A DNA stretch of 64,000 bases from an uncultured Chlamydiales bacterium (GCA_963785335.1 CAWAUW010000002.1:168952-232951), one strand, 5' to 3'; shown: positions 3,188-45,572, counted from the stretch's first letter. Made by a program: numbers and translations. Notes: generated from the letters alone by a model not told the origin.

Positions 3188-4770
3188 CTGGGGGCGTAGT
3201 CTCCTCCCTTGGCAAGGGTATTGCCGCATCAAGTTTAGGTCTTTTGCTTGAACGTAAAGGCTTTAAAGTAGCCATGATGAAACTTGATCCCTACCTAAAC
3301 GTAGATCCTGGCACCATGAGCCCATTTCAGCATGGCGAGGTTTATGTAACCGATGACGGGGCAGAGACCGACCTTGATCTTGGCCACTACTTTCGCTTTA
3401 CACACTCCCCTCTTTCTAAAAAATCAAGCGTTAGCTCTGGCCAGATTTATTACGAAGTAATCAGGCGCGAAAGAAAGGGTGATTATCTTGGTAAAACTGT
3501 GCAGGTAATACCGCATGTTACTGATGAAATTAAGCGCCGCATCATAGACTGCGCAGAAAATAGCGACATAATTATCGTTGAAATTGGTGGCACTGTTGGT
3601 GATATTGAATCACTGCCATTTCTTGAGGCCATTCGTCAGATGCGCTATGAAAAGGCAGCTTCTTGTTTAAATATTCACGTAACATATGTACCTTTTATTA
3701 AAGCCGCAGGTGAAGTCAAAACTAAGCCTACACAGCACTCTGTGCAGGTACTTCGCCAAATTGGCATATCACCTGATATTATTTTGTGCCGCTCAGAATC
3801 TTCACTTTCAAGTGACGTTAAAGAAAAAATTAGCTTATTTTGCAATGTGCGCGAAGATGCCGTCATAGAATGCACCGACGTAGAACACAGCATCTACGAA
3901 GTACCGCTCACACTTCATGCACAAGGCATCGAAGAAAAAGTATGCCAGATGCTGCAGCTGCCATCCAACCCCATAAATCTGCAAAGCTGGCAAAATCTCG
4001 TAGAAACTATACGCCATCCAAAGGGCATTATAACTGTTGGCATTGTAGGAAAGTATGTACAACACCAAGATGCCTATAAATCAGTCTTTGAAGCTCTGCA
4101 TCATGGCGCCTTTGCCAATGGCTATAAAATCGAAATTAAGCGTATTGAATCTGATCGCTTTGATGAAAATGGTTCATTTCCGGACTGGGCGCATGGCTGT
4201 GATGGCTATTTAGTACCTGGCGGTTTTGGCGATAGAGGCTGGTACGGAAAAATATCATGCGCAAAATACTGCCGCGAAAACAAAATCCCCTATTTCGGCA
4301 TATGCCTCGGCATGCAGGTAATGGTTGTGGAATTTGCCCGGCATGCTCTTGGCTTAGAGCGTGCAGATTCTACCGAAATGGATGAAAGTACACCTCATCC
4401 CATAATTTCACTTCTTGAAGAGCAAAGACTTGTTACAGATCGTGGAGGCACCATGCGTCTTGGCGCCTATCCTTGCGTTTTAAAGCAAGGAAGCCTGGCT
4501 CATAAGGCCTACGGCAAAAATGCTATATCAGAACGACATCGCCATCGCTATGAGCTCAACAACAAATACCAGGATAGTTTAGAAAATGGCGGACTTAACA
4601 TAAGCGGCACCTATGAAGAGGGCAATTTATGCGAAATTGTAGAGGTAAAAGACCATCCTTGGATGGTTGGAGCACAGTTTCATCCGGAATTTGCATCAAA
4701 ACCACTTGAGCCGCATCCACTATTTCGCGATTTTGTAAAGGCTATGATCCAAGGCAAGCCCTCATGCTAA
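3163..4770 (+). CDS. pyrG: CTP synthase
   Basis: [14 protein letters not shown]-terminus and GICLGMQ glutaminase cysteine motif. ATG at 3163. Overlaps the kdsB 3' end by 25 nt. Confidence 0.95.
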
Positions 4771-6124: not shown

Positions 6125-7267
6125 TGTCCTATTTGCATGTACTAAATCTTGATACTATTGGCGGGGTCGAAGAGCTTTTTGTGCATTTTCTTGTCCACGC
6201 CAAAAAGCTATCTTCTAAAAAGCAAAATGTACTTGTCACATCAAATAGGCCTCATCCATTTTTTGAAGAACGGCTAAAAATAGCTGACAGCCTCATTTTA
6301 GAAAAATTTTTAGGTCCAATTAAGCTTCCAAGTTTTGCGCGATCTTGGAAACGAAAACATGCCCTTAAAGCTGCCGATACCACCATTCTCTGGAATCGCA
6401 TGGAAAATTACCCTTGGCCAAAAAGTGCCATAGGGAATGTTATATACTACGAACATGGCGCTTCATGGATTGCTCAAAAAGACAGCTTTAAATTGTGAAT
6501 TCTTTAAAACCCCAGATAAAATTTTAGCAAACTCTCACGCTGCAAAACGTGTTTTAGAGCTAAAGTGGGATATAAAATCCCCCATCACAATTATCGACAA
6601 TCCCCTAAAACCGACTATTCAAGCAGCAATAGCCCCAAAAAAAGCCCCTACACATCTTCGTTTAGGCTTTATTGGCCGCCTCATCCCATTAAAAGGTGTA
6701 TCGCTTATTTTACATGCCCTAACAGCCTTTCAAGCACAAAATGTCAGCCTCACCATTGCAGGAGATGGCCCTGAAAAAGAAGCTCTGATGGCCGAAGCCT
6801 TGCGACTAAATGTGCCGGTAACATTTTTTGGAGCCATAAAAGATGTTTCTGGATTTTATGATGCTATCGATGTTCTTATAGTGCCATCCATACGCGAGCC
6901 CTTGGGCCTTGTAGCCCAGGAAGCAGCCCTCAGAGGCTGCCCAGTAATTGCCGCCAAGGTTGATGGCCTGCCCGAAGTTGTTCTGGATCAACAAACCGGC
7001 TTTTGCATTACCCCAAAGCTCGATATTGCACACTACCACCATTTTGGCGGCAAAAACCACAACCTTCCGGACCTTGTATACGATCCCACAACAGACGCAC
7101 TTACTACCCCAAAATTGATCGATCCCAAAGATCTTGCTGCCGCAATTGCACACCTTATGCAAAACCCTGCCCTTTTTGAACAGCTAAGCCAAAACGCCAT
7201 CACCTTCGCCAAAATGCGTCCTAGCTTCGATCAATACGCCCAAACTCTTTTGTCATTTTTAGGTTAA
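6124..7267 (+). pseudogene. GT-B (GT4-like) glycosyltransferase split by a +1 frameshift near 6480-6500
   Basis: The N-terminal half (6124..6498, frame 1) and C-terminal half (6437..7267, frame 2) overlap. The C-terminal part has REPLGLVAQEAALRGCPVIAAKVDGLPEVV (GT4 E-x7-E region). The combined length of ~380 aa is normal for the family. Confidence 0.65.
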
Positions 7268-7275
7268 AATTTCTT

Positions 7276-7454
7276 GACCGAAGGTCTCTGGGAGTGCTGT
7301 GCTTTTTGCACAGCCCTTAATTTTACAAACACCATAACATCTAAAACGACACCGCGAAAATTAGCCATTTTTTTACTTTGCTGCTTTTATAGTTATGCTT
7401 TTCGTAAAATTAAGGGCGGTGCAAAAAGCACGCGCACTCCAGGGACCTACGGTC
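7276..7454. repeat. Palindromic element, family F2 (CTGGAGT-hairpin-CTTAATTTT arms)
   Basis: Left arm GACCGAAGGTCTCTGGGAGTGCTGTGCTTTTTGCACAGCCCTTAATTTTACA. Right arm CGTAAAATTAAGGGCGGTGCAAAAAGCACGCGCACTCCAGGGACCTACGGTC. The centre is ~75 bp. Confidence 0.85.
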
Positions 7455-7466
7455 AAAAAAATTCAA

Positions 7467-7883
7467 TTACACTTGAGAAAATTGAGAAAGAAGAAAGGCT
7501 AGACGGTTTGTGATGGATTTTTTTAATTCTTCGTCATAGGGCGTTTTAATTGGGTGATCCCAAACAGTTTGGGGCCAGGCGGGATCATGCTCAAAGCGTG
7601 CAATGATGTGAATATGCAGTTGGGGTGTTTTATTGCCTATTGCGGCAACATTAATTTGGGTAGGCTTGAATTCATTCCATAGTATGTTTTGAACAAAATC
7701 CATTTCTTGTAAGAGCTGCAGCTGATCATCTGGTGATAAATCAATAATGCGTGAGACATTCGCTCGTCTTGGCACCAGAAACAGCCAAGGATAGTGCTGG
7801 TTATCTTCTAAAAGCACATGACAAAGCGGTAAATCAACAATGTGCGTTTTTTTTTGCAAGTTTTGATGGAGTGTAAAGCTCAT
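7467..7883 (-). CDS. HIT-family (histidine triad) nucleotide hydrolase/transferase
   Basis: PQLHIHIIARF histidine-triad motif, 138 aa. Confidence 0.8.
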   Translation of the reverse strand: MSFTLHQNLQKKTHIVDLPLCHVLLEDNQHYPWLFLVPRRANVSRIIDLSPDDQLQLLQEMDFVQNILWNEFKPTQINVAAIGNKTPQLHIHIIARFEHDPAWPQTVWDHPIKTPYDEELKKSITNRLAFLLSQFSQV

Positions 7884-8786: not shown

Positions 8787-8987
8787 GTGTACATTATGAA
8801 ATAAGATCTCATAAAAAACAAGTGTATTGGAAAAATACGGGGCCGGTGGTGGGGTAAAAAGAATCAATGATTTCATAAAGAAACACTATAATCTATTTTA
8901 TCCTCTGAATTTTGCACTCTCTTTTTTATCGTTTTTATCGTTATATCGTTATATCGTTTCAATCTTTGAAATTTGACTTCACCGGAA

Positions 8988-40602: not shown

Positions 40603-41967
40603 ATGCAAGTAACTCCAGGACAAACTCCGAGTCAAACTCCTACACCAGAGGTAGGAAGCCCAAATAGACCATCCATCTTAGAACTTGCAGATTCTGCACG
40701 CCAAGTTTCTATAAGCGACGATACAAAAAGCCCAACGACCAAAGAAAAACTGACATTGAAAACATTTTTTGGAGCCATTGGCAAGTCCATGGAATCAGCA
40801 CGTAATTTTTTTACAAAACTGACAGAAATCAAAGAAATTCCTGAAAAGCATAAAGAGCAGTATGCCAAATTTAAAGAAGCCTACGAAGACTTTAATGCTG
40901 CATTAAAGGATCTTAAAACACCTCAAGAGATACAGGCGCCAAAGCCTCAAGTAACAAAAGAGCAACAAAAGCGCCTTGATGCATTTGATGCAGAATTAGA
41001 AGGCATCAGTCCCCCTGTTTCAGAATCTAAAGAAGTTCCAGAACAAAAAGTTAACTCAGATATTATTGACACGATCCTGCGTCATGCCCAAAAGATCGAT
41101 AAGTCAGAAGGTGCGCGCTATAACCGCTTAGAAAATTTAAAACCTGGATTACTTGACTTCAAATCACTTGATAAAGCCGCAAAAGCCCTACAGGATCAAA
41201 CCAAGCTGCTGCGTAATCCCGAAAACTATACATGGTCATTCACTGATCGCCTTCGGGCAACACCAGGTGAAGTAAAGGCTGAAATAACCGCCGTCGTACA
41301 TAAAATACTCCGAACAGATACACGTAAAGCTGCAGAAAAAGAAAAAAGCCAATTTATTCAGTTTCTGCGCGATAGCGGATATACTGAAAGAAGCAAAGAA
41401 TTCATAACGGAACTTGCAAATGCCCGACTTATTGACAACCCGCCAGATGCATTAAAAAAAGCCATAGATGAAGCAGAAGATGTCCTTCTTAAAATTCGTC
41501 CAAACATGAATCCTAAAACTGTATCTACTAAAGAGCTGCAACAAAGCTATCAAATTCTAAAAGAAGCTTCTACAAAGATTGGCACGGCACTACGAGAATA
41601 TCAGGCAACTTTACCCGCTGAAGAAGTAAAAACAGCCCAAAAACCACAGGTAGCTCAAGTTGCAGCAAAACCCATAAGGGCTGTAGCAAATCCAATTAAG
41701 GAATTGGAAAAAGAACTCGATACTATTAAAAAAGAAAAAGTGCAACTTCGCCAACAAATGAATGAAAAAACAGCAAATATTATGCATGAACTTGGTACTA
41801 AAGGCATGCTTGAGCTTAGCGAAAAAGACGTTCGAGGCCTTTCATCCGAAGAAGAGCATCTATTGGTTGACATGGCCAATTTATTGTCTCGCGAAGTGCA
41901 TGTTTTAGATGATCTTCGAATCCAAAACCTTGCCCAACATGGCATTAAAATTATCCCTACAGCTTAG
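40603..41967 (+). CDS. Hypothetical 454-aa Lys/Glu-rich protein with a Pro/Ser/Thr-rich N-terminus (coiled-coil character inferred from composition only)
   Basis: Clean ORF. N-terminus MQVTPGQTPSQTPTPEVGSPNRPS. Lys/Glu-rich body suggestive of helices. No enzymatic motif. Confidence 0.5.
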   Translation: MQVTPGQTPSQTPTPEVGSPNRPSILELADSARQVSISDDTKSPTTKEKLTLKTFFGAIGKSMESARNFFTKLTEIKEIPEKHKEQYAKFKEAYEDFNAALKDLKTPQEIQAPKPQVTKEQQKRLDAFDAELEGISPPVSESKEVPEQKVNSDIIDTILRHAQKIDKSEGARYNRLENLKPGLLDFKSLDKAAKALQDQTKLLRNPENYTWSFTDRLRATPGEVKAEITAVVHKILRTDTRKAAEKEKSQFIQFLRDSGYTERSKEFITELANARLIDNPPDALKKAIDEAEDVLLKIRPNMNPKTVSTKELQQSYQILKEASTKIGTALREYQATLPAEEVKTAQKPQVAQVAAKPIRAVANPIKELEKELDTIKKEKVQLRQQMNEKTANIMHELGTKGMLELSEKDVRGLSSEEEHLLVDMANLLSREVHVLDDLRIQNLAQHGIKIIPTA

Positions 41968-41983
41968 AAAAATAAATATAATT

Positions 41984-42692
41984 TTAACCGCAGAGAAAAC
42001 AGCCGAGGAAATACCGAGGAATACAATTAAAAAAAACACATGATAATAGGGGTAGTATTTTACTGCGGAAGCAGTTTAAGTGGGAAGCCCCGCGTGAAAT
42101 GAAAGGCCGGTAGGCCTGTAATGGAACGTGGGGATAAAATGAGCATATCATAGAGCTGCGGCAGCACATAAGCGTTAAGCTAACGTAAGTGCGTAGGCCG
42201 CAAGGTCTTCTGGAGTGCGGTAATTATTTACCGCTCTTAATTTTCGCCCACGCGCCTTCGCCTCAGTAGCCTCCAAAGCTAAAAAGCAGGTAAAAGTATA
42301 TTTAGCGAAAAGTCTTGCGGCACAGCTGAGGGTATTTGTATGTATTGGACCTTTATGAGGAATAGTGTGTGGTCGAAAATTAAGAGCGGTAAATAATTAC
42401 CGCACTCCAGAGCTTCGCTCAAGGCTACTGCTCACTAGGTGGTTACGTTAGCTTAACGCGTATGTGCTGCCGCAGTAGCGTTAAGCCTTGGCGTAAGTAC
42501 AGTTCATTTAATATTTTTTTCTTGATCTCGATCGTGATCTTAATCTTGATCTTCTTTTTAACATGTGCTTTATACTCAAAATACCGAAAAAAGAAAGATT
42601 AAGATTAAGATCAAGATCAAGATTAAGATCAAAAAATGGCTTAAATGAATGGTATTGGGCACCAGAGCCACCTATATACTTTATAGGTGGCT
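41984..42692. repeat. Intergenic stack of four palindrome types
   Basis: Word run at 41984-42030. Hairpin 42088-42133. Outer IR 42155-42188/42443-42475 enclosing the F2 element 42209-42246/42374-42411. GATCTT-word palindrome 42503-42650. Hairpin 42666-42692 followed by a T-run. Confidence 0.85.
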
Positions 42693-42698
42693 TTTGGA

Positions 42699-45572
42699 TT
42701 ATTTAGAGAAGTCAATTGACATAGTCTGTCCACCTGAACCTACTATGCTATACCCTCTCAGCTTCTTACAGGCTTTAAAATTAAAGGCTTGAATACGCTG
42801 TATTTGATCTTGATCATCTGTTTGAAAGGTAAGTTTTGTAAGGTGACTAAACTGACTAAGTAGCTCTAGATCCTCTGAAGGATTACAAGATAAAGTAAGT
42901 TCTTTCACAGTTGCTGCTTTTTTTGATTCTAATAGGCACTTTAAAAGCGATTGCTGAGATGATGCAAACAATGCAATTGAAGCAATGGTTGAGTGAGAAT
43001 CAAGCAGTTTAGGAAGTGACTGTACGAGTTCCGGATCCTGTTCAAGAGAATCCACCATCAATCTTATGCTGCGAAGTGTAGGATGTGCATGTGCCTGTTG
43101 TCGTTCGGCAAGGCTTCCTATTTGCGCACCACTCTTTGCCCATATTGAAAGATAAGTTAAGCTTTGACTCATACCTACCCAAGCAAGCGTACCTGGCTCA
43201 AGATCAACATCCACTAAACAAAGTTCTTGTAGATTTCTTTGCAAATCTCTGCAGCTTGAAAAATCTAGCCTATTTGAAATTTTTTTGAGAGTAAGAGATC
43301 GTAGATTTAAGGCATTTAAACTTGGCAGTGACACCTCGCCATCACTAAGCGTAAGAGTCTGCAACAGAGGGAAAGCTCTGGCAAGCTCTTGCACCTCATG
43401 AGATGAGCTCTCTCCAGTTAATGGCATGCTTAGTGCTGTAAGGCTAGAGCAGTTTGCAAATTTATGTATTTCTTCTGCATACAAGCCCTCATGAAGAATA
43501 AGTGTTGTAAGATTGGGAAATACGCTTGTATCAAGCCAGCTGCGAGCTGTTGGGTTTAATACTGCCACAATATCCGTAAGTGCTTGTGAATCTAAATAAG
43601 CAAAGCGTGAAAGAATATTTTCGCTACTACAATAATCTACACTATTAGTGCTTGCAATACAACGACAGCCAAACTGAATCATCTTGGTATCGAGGCTATT
43701 TTTTATAGGCAATTCTACGCCCATGTCCAAAAGTTCAACATAAAGATTTGAAAGAAACGCAAATATTTGAATTACTTGCTTTTCTGTGAAAGTCATTTTA
43801 CCTTCAAAAAGCCTTTCGGCAGCCGCGGCAATAGCAAAAAAGAGTCGATGATGTTCCTGTGGGTCAATAGTAAGCCGTTTTGGATCATACAGCGTAATTA
43901 ACTTAAGAAAATCATCTGAGGATAATGCTGGAAGGCGCTCTTCAAGAGTAGAATAAGGCAATAGCAGCCTTCGGGCTTGAACAAGACGCAGCCACAAAAA
44001 TGCCGAGAGTTTTTGTTCAAATGCGGGTGTATGTAGTGGGTTAATTGACAATTCGGCAACCTCAAAGGGCATTTCTAACAAATCGGCAAGTTCAAAAAGA
44101 ACTACGATTTCCTCTGGGGTTAACTCGGAAAATTCATACTGATTTCTTTGAAACGCCACTGAAAGTTGGTTAAAGATATTTTCTGGATCTTTAGCGTGCA
44201 CTACCATTTCACGAATAAGATCTGATAAATCAATTCTAGGTTTTTCAGGTTCTTCTGTTCTTCCTACTAAAGGTAGTGAATCCCAAACACCCCGAAAAGA
44301 CCAGGTTTGAAGCTGCTGTATTTGATCTTGGGAACAACAATCTCTTTGCAGCATATTTGAAATGGTAGCGAGCACAAGAATACTCATATGAATTCGATAT
44401 TTTCCAAAACAAAGCTGCACATCGCATGGAAAAGCTTTTAGATGTGTGAATAAAATGCGCGCATTCGTTCGAACAAGAGTTACTGTAGCATCCAACGAGT
44501 CTTGAGACAACTCTTTAGAAAAAAACAGTTTACCTAAATGCAAAAGCGCCCAGCCATGTAAAGCTGAAAGTTCTACTTCTGTACAAGCATATTTATTAAT
44601 ATTGGTTTGAATCCATGCTCTGAGAATTGCATTTCTATCTTCATCTGATTCGGCACTTTCTAATTTACTTAGGAGCTCTATTGCGCTGTTTGTAAGATCA
44701 TTCCAATAAGTAAAAATATCAGTAACAGCCTGATTTTGACTTTGCAAATCTAGCTTAAGACGTCTGCATAATCCGTTCAAAGCTATAAGTTTGCCTTCAC
44801 ATTCTTCAAGAATTGCCCCACATGCATCTAACTGCCTTTGTACAGGTTCTAATTGTTGCAAGATAAATGAAAGGCCTTGTTTTTTTTGAAGGCTATCCTT
44901 AGAGAGAATTTTTGTAATTGACCCAGATGCAAGTGCCACTTCTTCTCGAACTTCTTTCAAACTTGCTTCATTTGATCCAAATTTGCTTTTCACATTTTCA
45001 ATAACAGCACTTCGCAGAACACCGTGATGTTTTTTAAAGTTTTGTGGAACAGACTTATCTAGTTCTAGTAATAAATCAATGGCCTCCGAAATTTTATCTT
45101 GGCGAATGAGCGTTGCTAATGTGCATTCTTGAATAAAAAAATAGCGTTCGGAGCCTATTTCATACTTTAATGCCTGCTGCAATGTTATGTAAGACTCGTA
45201 AGCAAGACTAACATGTCCTTTTTCAAATGCCCCTCGAGCTATGACCTCTTTTCCTCGTACAGCCTCATCAAAGCATGCTATAAGTGTCTCACAGCTTTTC
45301 GAAGTTATAATTCTTGGAGATAAGCCATTGGATGTAACTGCCAGGTTCAACGCCGCAAATAGATTCGATATTTTTTGCACTCTTTGCGAAAATACAACTA
45401 TGTCGCCTACCTCTTGAGCCTTATGACCATTAAGAGTTGGTTTACCGGTAAATTTTGCAATAGCGACATCTGCTTTTTGTTCTAGTTGAGCCAGTGCCTG
45501 CTTATATTGATCTTCGGAAGTAATTACTCTACCTGAATACTCTGTTGATGAACCTGAAGGCAATAAATTCAT
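42699..45572 (-). CDS. 957-aa protein: N-terminal region of unassigned fold plus C-terminal leucine-rich repeats
   Basis: The C-terminal ~300 aa have LRR periodicity (LTTLILHEG, LTALSMPL, LQTLTLSDG, LRSLTLKKI, LQELCLVDV, LTYLSIWAK, VKELTLSCN, LTKLTFQTD). Confidence 0.6.
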   Translation of the reverse strand: MNLLPSGSSTEYSGRVITSEDQYKQALAQLEQKADVAIAKFTGKPTLNGHKAQEVGDIVVFSQRVQKISNLFAALNLAVTSNGLSPRIITSKSCETLIACFDEAVRGKEVIARGAFEKGHVSLAYESYITLQQALKYEIGSERYFFIQECTLATLIRQDKISEAIDLLLELDKSVPQNFKKHHGVLRSAVIENVKSKFGSNEASLKEVREEVALASGSITKILSKDSLQKKQGLSFILQQLEPVQRQLDACGAILEECEGKLIALNGLCRRLKLDLQSQNQAVTDIFTYWNDLTNSAIELLSKLESAESDEDRNAILRAWIQTNINKYACTEVELSALHGWALLHLGKLFFSKELSQDSLDATVTLVRTNARILFTHLKAFPCDVQLCFGKYRIHMSILVLATISNMLQRDCCSQDQIQQLQTWSFRGVWDSLPLVGRTEEPEKPRIDLSDLIREMVVHAKDPENIFNQLSVAFQRNQYEFSELTPEEIVVLFELADLLEMPFEVAELSINPLHTPAFEQKLSAFLWLRLVQARRLLLPYSTLEERLPALSSDDFLKLITLYDPKRLTIDPQEHHRLFFAIAAAAERLFEGKMTFTEKQVIQIFAFLSNLYVELLDMGVELPIKNSLDTKMIQFGCRCIASTNSVDYCSSENILSRFAYLDSQALTDIVAVLNPTARSWLDTSVFPNLTTLILHEGLYAEEIHKFANCSSLTALSMPLTGESSSHEVQELARAFPLLQTLTLSDGEVSLPSLNALNLRSLTLKKISNRLDFSSCRDLQRNLQELCLVDVDLEPGTLAWVGMSQSLTYLSIWAKSGAQIGSLAERQQAHAHPTLRSIRLMVDSLEQDPELVQSLPKLLDSHSTIASIALFASSQQSLLKCLLESKKAATVKELTLSCNPSEDLELLSQFSHLTKLTFQTDDQDQIQRIQAFNFKACKKLRGYSIVGSGGQTMSIDFSK

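Follow-up and report, generated by a model that had tools for sequence, protein, structure and literature searches.

Tagged hairpin arms in Chlamydiales as probable REP-like ends of palindromic elements derived from a RAYT-bearing parent

The subject of this work is a window of 64,000 nucleotides from an uncultured Chlamydiales bacterium (GCA_963785335.1 CAWAUW010000002.1:168952-232951), in which a compound hairpin arm is found in inverted pairs at five loci. The first of these loci (7276-7454) is shown above; all positions are counted from the first nucleotide of the window. The arms share a common plan: a mini-hairpin of the type C-GNA-G, a CTGGAGT tag, a G+C-rich stem of 7-8 bp with a T-rich loop and a YCTTAATTT tail. 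In our opinion this module is very probably the recognition end, similar to REPs (repetitive extragenic palindromes), of chlamydial palindromic non-autonomous elements of 190-360 bp, which would derive from a parent with a REP-associated tyrosine transposase (RAYT) of the HUH-Y1 type.

An earlier note on this DNA, made from the sequence alone, had described the inverted arm pairs. With the anchor GGAGTGC we find exactly ten arms, at the same five loci (Table 1). The loop length varies between arms, so that a gapped pattern is needed: GGAGTGCGG-N8-14-CCGCYCTTAA matches seven of the ten, with 0.00 matches expected in 100 dinucleotide-preserving shuffles, while the fixed-length pattern of the earlier note recovers a single arm with two mismatches allowed. 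The flanks had been called constant; they are nearly so, with deviations at 7289 (CTGGGAGT), 29877 (CTCTTAAATTT), 30050 (CTCTTAGTTC) and 32490 (ATGGAGT). The three main stems quoted at that time (GCGGTGC, GCGGCGA and GCGGTAA) were correctly read from the arms, and element 1 contains a fourth compensated stem, GCTGTGC/GCACAGC. All these are paired, as had been proposed for every arm, but the second stem of element 1 (GCGCGTGC/GCACCGC) is imperfect. The covarying mini-hairpins GACC-GAA-GGTC, GAGC-GAA-GCTC and GAGC-TTTA-GCTC are all present, together with GACC-GTA-GGTC. Single arms folded as DNA give both predicted small hairpins, and the predicted fold reproduces the mini-hairpins GACC-GAA-GGTC, GACC-GTA-GGTC and GAGC-GAA-GCTC. 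The two arms do form a long palindrome: the region 7262-7466, folded as DNA, gives -57.5 kcal/mol (z = -10.3).

The core of the arms had been placed well, but their extent was too short: the similarity continues about 55 nt further inward and up to about 95 nt further outward. The arm has a length of about 75 nt in an nhmmer profile and the window palindromes measure about 190-360 bp; what had been seen are the subterminal parts of palindromic elements which resemble REPINs and miniature inverted-repeat transposable elements (MITEs). At four loci the arms are found in the order + then -, facing inward; at 55.7k the order is - then +, with the outer ends 6 nt apart. The interiors of elements 2 and 3 (29907-30002 and 32538-32633) have opposite orientations and are 93% complementary; these are therefore oriented elements, beyond mere paired arms. 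Each of the five loci occupies an intergenic region, which in at least four cases borders on the 3' end of a gene.

The module is widespread in Chlamydiales. A search of a collection of species-representative genomes with TGGAGTGC-N12-18-GCYCTTAATTT gave at least 77 loci, the genome of the window being outside the 77 listed. About 64 of the matches listed belong to metagenome-assembled genomes (MAGs) of Chlamydiales: JAJFUY01, CAZEQY01, CAYWZU01, CAZEGK01, JBGAFY01 (Rhabdochlamydiaceae), JAYRNE01 and JBGSSB01. The others listed are single chance occurrences in unrelated taxa. At least eight further Chlamydiales genomes have the module in many copies; in JAJFUY there are dozens among the matches listed, and many contigs of this MAG terminate within an element. 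In the element-bearing loci (about 490 kb) a profile search gave 119 arms. The ten arms of the window were also used to build a covariance model, a scan which the earlier note had suggested, and this gave 135. Nearly all of them form pairs in the order + then -, with the arms 180-250 bp apart; 45 such pairs were counted. The same note would have given up its idea if there were only three clonal variants, absent from any relative; the 135 arms come from at least nine genomes and a separate count gives at least eight perfectly paired stem types. By its YggS protein the window falls within Chlamydiales: this protein is 60% identical to that of CAZEQY and about 50% to those of Parachlamydia and Waddliaceae. 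We have found no report in the literature of such repeats in Chlamydiae, nor of the motif GGAGTGCGG. In the MAG CAYWZU, three single elements (L015, L018 and L022) pair an arm with the stem GCGGTAA/TTACCGC and an arm with the unlike stem GCTGCGA/TCGCAGC; therefore arms of different subfamilies can combine.

The complete anatomy is best seen in JAJFUY, where we have aligned 20 complete elements with their flanks. The unit has about 260-280 bp and is limited by the termini CTCGAGTTTGGACATTTG ... CAAATGTCCAAACTCGAG. These are followed inward by the mini-hairpin, CT-GGAGT, the main hairpin, YCTTAATTTT and a non-palindromic interior, which gives an orientation to each element. The terminus CTCGAGTTTGGACATTTG is also found in CAZEQY, CAYWZU and JAYRNE, with a variant form in JBGAFY; a second type of terminus starts with CTATAGTTT. 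The relatives thus have what is expected of MITEs: terminal inverted repeats, short copies without a transposase gene and a longer element with the same ends. A candidate for a long autonomous element in L026, with arms 3.4 kb apart, was rejected; its largest enclosed open reading frame (ORF) has at most 168 amino acids.

The longer element carries the RAYT. An all-against-all comparison of the ORFs in the element-bearing loci brought out a protein of 176 amino acids in L062 and L030. It scores 86.2 bits with the NCBIfam model NF047646 (REP-associated tyrosine transposase equivalog), whose cut-off is 80, and its sole relative in the PDB is TnpA-REP of E. coli (4ER8), where HYH aligns with HMH and YVHKNPV with YIYINPV. 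The HUH and Y-x-x-x-NP motifs are conserved, with N-H-Y-H-F and Y..N invariant in 11 homologues; several homologues have a precomputed PF01797 assignment. In six related chlamydial genomes the gene is found between the arms or beside them, in the inverted flanks characteristic of a REPtron (Table 1), and in four MAGs (CAZEQY, JAJFUY, CAZEGK and CAYWZU) the RAYT and the repeats are present in the same genome. The suggestion of a recognition element with subfamilies, for example the site of a hairpin-binding transposase, is thus supported. The stems around the RAYT are of five types at the six loci: GCGGTAA, GCGGGTGCA, GCGACGA, GCGGTGCA and GCGGCGA; the first one is common to L062 and L036+L030, which belong to the two closest genomes, CAZEQY and JAJFUY. 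In L079 three complete doublets with spacers of about 80 nt are found directly 3' of the RAYT (3566-4404), with natural tail-to-tail junctions like that at 55.7k in the window.

The interiors of the short elements align with the 5' leader and the 3' flank of the RAYT, and the element in L073 retains a RAYT remnant of 31 codons. The stop codon of the RAYT is located within the mini-hairpin TGACCGAAGGTC, and the window arms still read GAATTTTTTTGACCGTAGGTC (for example at 7444-7466). The short elements are thus shown to be internal-deletion derivatives of the RAYT-bearing unit. The overlap of the stop codon with the mini-hairpin of the downstream arm (GAA TTT TGA CCGAAGGTC) can be seen in L078 (3524-3540), L164 (660-680) and L030 (545-565). 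The invariant D-x-F at the C-terminus of the RAYT is encoded by the repeat sequence.

Related RAYTs outside this group have a similar hairpin. We fetched 80 RAYT loci from metagenomes, with 38-65% identity to the chlamydial protein. At 35 of the 57 loci with adequate flanks we find [G/T]GAGT and, after it, a G+C hairpin with a perfect stem of 6 bp or more; 83 sites have the REPtron orientation and 63 the opposite one, as compared with 0.25 in shuffled flanks. Their stems are very diverse, and L089 is a plain REPtron. The tagged hairpin is found at RAYT homologues far outside Chlamydiae and is therefore the REP type of an entire clade of RAYTs. What Chlamydiae have added are the long compound arms and the outer termini. 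In a RAYT lineage at 65% identity (L084, 843-900; L164, 1-55) there is upstream of the gene a collapsed 'double-foot' repeat with CTGGAGT, one hairpin and ACTGCCA, which looks as if it were a doublet with its centre deleted.

The stems vary by compensated changes. In a covariance-model alignment of the 135 arms, 98.3% of the cells of the main helix are paired and only one cell in about 760 is a G-U pair. Double changes are found in five of the seven pairs and one-sided variation in only one. The covariation score is 0.375, compared with 0.150 in shuffled alignments and at most 0.10 with slid partners. The stems form a chain, GCGGTAA - GCGGCAA - GCGGCGA - GCGACGA / GCTGCGA, to which GCGGTGC - GCTGTGC is added; such a series needs several independent compensated changes. 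The covariation of the stem is genuine. The mini-hairpin occurs in 35 combinations of stem and loop. Among 114 arms, 76 have a GAA, GCA or GTA loop and 11 have GTAA, and the closing pair is C:G in 104. Mini-hairpins of the type d(C-GNA-G)/d(GCGNNAGC) have an exceptional stability in DNA (PMC13037366, PMC3201870). Pairing by Watson-Crick pairs only, together with loops of DNA type, favours folded single-stranded DNA over RNA. The earlier note had left open a structured DNA or RNA; the evidence now leans towards a module which would act as folded single-stranded DNA, and RNA is not favoured. In the window there is no Rfam match at the gathering score, and a scan for tRNA and tmRNA gave none.

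An unexpected feature of the relatives is the presence of a whole locus-specific hairpin of 20-34 nt, directly repeated just outside both termini of complete elements, including those with a RAYT. In a gapped test we detect this duplication in about 14-15 of 19 elements, with a median direct-repeat score of 21; mismatched flank pairs, used as control, score 5 in the median and 10.5 at most. In an ungapped test a duplication of 20-30 nt abuts both termini without any gap in 12 of 20 elements, and in ten of these 12 the distance between the start of the stem and the ends of the duplicated stretch is 0-1 nt. The asymmetry of the loop favours the direct over the inverted orientation in most cases; L005 and L049 are exceptions which fit the inverted arrangement better. 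The RAYT-bearing units of L081 and of JAJFUY (L036/L030) each have a 24-nt hairpin directly repeated on their two flanks; in L081 its sequence is AGGCATTCTCCAAGGAGAATGCCT. These duplications argue against the immobility described for RAYT units. A contrast of presence and absence is given by only one orthologous site, which holds an element in JAJFUY (L032) and none in CAZEQY (L073), with diverged hairpins; in the comparison of L049 and L069 synteny breaks at the site. The duplicated target hairpin of L019 (4860-4903 and 5172-5215) belongs to another dispersed palindromic repeat of JAJFUY, which is also present in L031, L023, L065, L039, L008, L043 and L040; therefore the elements insert beside other repeat hairpins too, not only at gene terminators. 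We have found no report in the literature of hairpin-sized target duplications, and in the literature searched no target duplication is reported for REPINs or TIRtrons.

A possible mechanism is as follows. Whenever the DNA is single-stranded, for example in the lagging-strand template, the arms would fold into hairpins. The RAYT would bind the tagged hairpin by its shape and by the GGAGT tag; with such a recognition the inner stem would be free to change as long as it remains paired. The enzyme would then cleave and rejoin the ends, so that elements are copied in trans. The site of insertion on each strand would be the foot of a terminator-like hairpin between genes, with one cut per strand, 3' of the copy of the target hairpin which that strand carries. 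Since the target is a palindrome and the ends of the element are alike on its two strands, the cuts would be staggered by the length of the hairpin, and fill-in would then yield a second copy of it. We propose only tentatively, as a possibility with somewhat less than an even chance, that the HUH-Y1 RAYT is still an autonomous transposon of about 730 bp with long inverted-repeat ends, which inserts, together with its short derivatives, at the foot of any stable DNA hairpin, be it a gene terminator or another palindromic repeat, cuts each strand beside its own copy of that hairpin and so duplicates it whole. If this were true, the target duplication would be defined by structure and variable in length, and a double-strand insertion signature would be associated with a class of enzymes thought to be single-strand and duplication-free. 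The duplication would also leave an intact terminator to each flanking gene, so that the elements would be tolerated in compact chlamydial genomes.

Other explanations should be considered. DDE elements are classically recognised by terminal inverted repeats, defined termini and target duplications, and the HUH-Y1 elements described so far lack such repeats and duplications (PMC6006769). The elements could be MITEs of a DDE-type insertion sequence, moved by double-stranded cut-and-paste with duplication of a staggered cut, the RAYT being a passenger or a targeted neighbour. We find this unlikely, since in the element-bearing loci no transposase recurs besides the RAYT when all ORFs are compared with each other, and the RAYT is the only gene found between the arms, in six genomes. 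Its flanks and a remnant of it are found inside short elements, the GGAGT-tagged hairpin also surrounds RAYT homologues outside Chlamydiae, and the length of the duplication follows the size of the target hairpin instead of being fixed. For the insertion signature alone, an unseen DDE enzyme or template switching during replication are alternatives.

The module might also be a signal of the host, either a bidirectional terminator or a 3' RNA hairpin which stabilises mRNA, maintained by selection and spread by duplication or recombination. The main hairpins with YCTTAATTTT do match a simple pattern of intrinsic terminators (a G+C stem-loop with a T-rich tract), oriented against the transcription which enters the element. 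The intergenic position of the five window loci, mostly at gene 3' ends, points in the same direction, as does the fact that an element lies downstream of yggS in the window and also in a relative (L082) whose protein is 67% identical and where an ordinary + then - element occupies the matching spot. However, termination does not need an invariant CTGGAGT tag nor the specific CTTAA, the G-U pairs which RNA tolerates are essentially absent from the main helix, the loop of the mini-hairpin is of DNA type, and Rfam gives no match. Such a signal would not account for the termini, the duplications and the difference in presence between genomes; a role in termination may be a secondary use which leaves the origin of the elements unexplained. 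As an explanation of the module we consider it quite improbable, although a secondary terminator role of the arms is plausible. Finally, conserved flanks around a covarying hairpin and the palindromic symmetry could suggest small structured RNAs, or double-stranded palindromic operators for a dimeric regulator. This has very little probability: no Rfam family is found, each locus has both orientations, no promoter is consistently associated, and a duplex operator would have no need of a stem which varies freely in sequence and yet stays self-complementary. The pattern is accounted for more directly by the association with the RAYT.

Several observations weigh against our interpretation of the module as an end recognised by a RAYT. 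The window itself contains neither a RAYT gene nor a remnant detectable by tblastn, so the link with the transposase rests on the relatives. Its five copies have no CTCGAGTTTGGACATTTG termini, which have diverged, and no clear duplication of a hairpin. With the RAYT as query, Pfam gives nothing at E <= 0.001. Searches with reconstructed pre-insertion sequences gave no empty site with an identical single hairpin. The alignment used for covariation was fitted to the model, and its counts are of sequences, not of independent events. The tag described for REPs is GT[AG]G (PMC6006769, PMC3733652), while the chlamydial tag is (CT)GGAGT. To our knowledge, no target duplication is left by IS200/IS605-type HUH-Y1 transposases, whose elements also lack terminal inverted repeats; the duplication might thus indicate another enzyme.

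The family works like a REP/REPIN-RAYT system of the TIRtron sort and largely qualifies as one. With REP/REPIN-RAYT systems (Nunvar 2010; Bertels and Rainey 2011, PMC3116915; Ton-Hoang 2012; Messing 2012, PMC3479197) it shares a G+C-rich hairpin which is short and has a conserved tag on its 5' side, doublets in inverted orientation which fold as long hairpins, an extragenic location and many copies. It also shares the RAYT (HUH-Y1) gene between inverted repeats, the presence of several subfamilies of the repeat in one genome, and an arrangement in arrays or in dimers, either head-to-head or tail-to-tail. It differs in its host phylum, Chlamydiota, and in its compound arm of about 75-100 nt, with mini-hairpin, tagged hairpin and a conserved CTTAATTT tail. 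Unlike REPINs, the chlamydial doublets have 190-360 bp, a non-palindromic interior derived from the RAYT flanks and defined outer termini. REPtrons have been described as not transposing as a unit, and REPINs have no reported duplication, whereas in the relatives of the window both the doublets and the RAYT unit are flanked by a duplicated hairpin. TIRtrons, with their TIRYT genes (Di Nocera et al. 2013, PMC3733652), also have a RAYT-like gene between long terminal inverted repeats, which are not simple REPs. These repeats are moderately abundant dispersed families, in dimers or clusters, and some have self-complementary tracts; the phrase 'target site duplication' is absent from that paper. 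Most TIRYTs belong to subclass 2.1, with a C-terminal helix-turn-helix extension and the repeat motif GGGGWSAS (PMC6006769). The chlamydial protein, in contrast, is minimal and ends at residue 176 with no extension, and its arms, as read, have the GGAGT-tagged hairpin and no GGGGWSAS.

There are also similarities with IS200/IS605 elements and PATEs: a very small element (about 730 bp) with only an HUH Y1 gene, subterminal hairpins as likely recognition sites and non-autonomous deletion derivatives. However, the left end of IS200/IS605 elements differs from the right one, and these elements lack both terminal inverted repeats and a target duplication; the chlamydial protein fits the RAYT model and the class 2 signature Y-x-x-x-NP, not the IS200 transposases. 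The long terminal inverted repeats and the target duplications exclude the family from IS200/IS605. Classical MITEs, such as Correia, ERIC, RPE and Nezha (PMC3184786), are similar in length, terminal inverted repeats, intergenic site, potential to form long hairpins and target duplication, and they too arise from an autonomous element by internal deletion. Their parent enzyme is of DDE type, while here it is an HUH-Y1 RAYT; their duplication is short and of fixed length, whereas here a whole locus-specific hairpin of 20-34 nt is duplicated. The family is not a classical DDE MITE.

REP/RAYT systems are known mainly from Proteobacteria; the family described here extends them to Chlamydiae, with GGAGT as a new tag. 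As far as we know, the way in which RAYTs move REPs is still unsolved. The covariation and the DNA-type loops support a recognition of folded single-stranded DNA, and the clean termini and the duplicated target hairpin of the relatives, even around the RAYT, are a possible record of the chemistry of insertion. If the RAYT generates the duplication, the view of RAYT units as immobile would be overturned, and a testable model would be available for the choice of target by HUH transposases. The repeats also break chlamydial metagenome assemblies and may mark the positions of terminators. The wider interest is in the insertion signature of the relatives; the window copies are ordinary decayed members.

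Table 1. Arm-bearing elements of the window and arrangement of the arms at RAYT loci of related genomes
Feature	Position	Strand	Arms or arrangement	GGAGTGC anchors	Main hairpins	Mini-hairpins
Element 1, palindrome of ~205 bp, REPIN/MITE-like	7262..7466	.	7272-7344 (+), 7388-7459 (-)	7291+, 7440-	7296-7314 (GCTGTGC TTTTT GCACAGC); 7416-7435 (minus strand, imperfect)	7276-7286; 7444-7454
Element 2, extended palindrome of ~358 bp	29787..30144	.	29860-29934 (+), 29994-30068 (-)	29879+, 30048-	29884-29901; 30026-30043 (GCGGCGA TTCT TCGCCGC)	GAGC-TTTA-GCTC
Element 3, subfamily of element 2	32417..32727 (outer limits approximate)	.	32475-32546 (+), 32606-32678 (-)	32492+, 32660-	32497-32514; 32638-32655	
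Element 4	42156..42475	.	42199-42266 (+), 42353-42419 (-)	42212+, 42408-	42217-42234; 42386-42403 (GCGGTAA TTAT TTACCGC)	
Fifth locus, tail-to-tail arm pair	55668..55833	.	55676-55747 (-), 55753-55825 (+)	55729-, 55772+	55706-55724; 55777-55795 (GCGGTGC TTTTT GCACCGC)	
RAYT locus L062 (CAZEQY)			RAYT between + arm and - arm			
RAYT locus L036 + L030 (JAJFUY)			terminus, + arm, RAYT, further doublet, terminus			
RAYT locus L078			full doublets on RAYT flanks			
RAYT locus L079			full doublets on RAYT flanks; three tandem doublets downstream			
RAYT locus L080 (CAZEGK)			RAYT with one arm per side			
RAYT locus L081 (CAYWZU)			RAYT with one arm per side; unit of 732 bp			

As members of the family, the five copies of the window are older and partly decayed; they are found at gene 3' ends and may double as bidirectional terminators. 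Element 1 has two convergent neighbours, a glycosyltransferase gene (6437-7267, +) and a gene for a HIT protein (7467-7883, -). The stop codon of the former is inside the outer end of the element (7258-7267, ..TTAGGTTAA AATTTCTTGACC..), so that this gene may owe the present form of its 3' end to the insertion. In element 2 the outer inverted repeat extends to CCGAAATGGGG / CCCCATTTCGG. Between elements 2 and 3 (30075-32371) there are a gene for a eukaryote-like protein-tyrosine-phosphatase on the minus strand (30971-32371; PF00102, E = 3e-22) and an ORF of 281 amino acids. With a likely effector gene between them, these two elements look like a composite transposon or an inversion-prone cassette.

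Element 4 is placed between convergent ORFs (40603-41967, +, and 42699-45572, -) and has an extra outer inverted repeat of 33 nt (42156-42188 / 42443-42475). Its core (42195-42413) is 84-85% identical to elements of the MAG CAZEQY01. No other DNA of the window matches this MAG, and the element is the sole similarity at the DNA level between the window and the scanned loci of the relatives. The pair at 55.7k occupies the spacer of two convergent genes, 55231-55665 (+) and yggS (55829-56506, -). Its outer mini-hairpins face one another across AAAATAAATCTTTT, and about 20 nt of interior are left on each side. This reversed pair resembles a tail-to-tail junction of tandem elements, like those of the L079 array, which has lost the outer halves. 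An origin by inversion between the elements at 7.3k and 55.7k was rejected by reasoning, because such an inversion retains + then - pairs.

The window has other repeats and palindromes. A second intergenic family, with TTTTTTTATCGTTNTTATCGTT units in inverted pairs and unrelated to the GGAGT module, is found at 235-381, 8916-8967, 21353-21480 and 48747-48872. A third repeat family is a tandem repeat of 64 nt in 3-4 copies, with GCCCTGGGC...GCCTTCAGCCTGCAA, at 61580-61910; it has inverted copies nearby and related arms at 14076-14134 / 14513-14571. Several other long palindromes between genes, whose arms measure 36-79 nt and are 82-92% complementary, are located at 13944-14046, 14203-14389, 42511-42637, 49996-50132 and 62417-62583; one of these, AT-rich and of the GATCTTGATC type, adjoins element 4. 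This genome is unusually rich in palindromic intergenic DNA.

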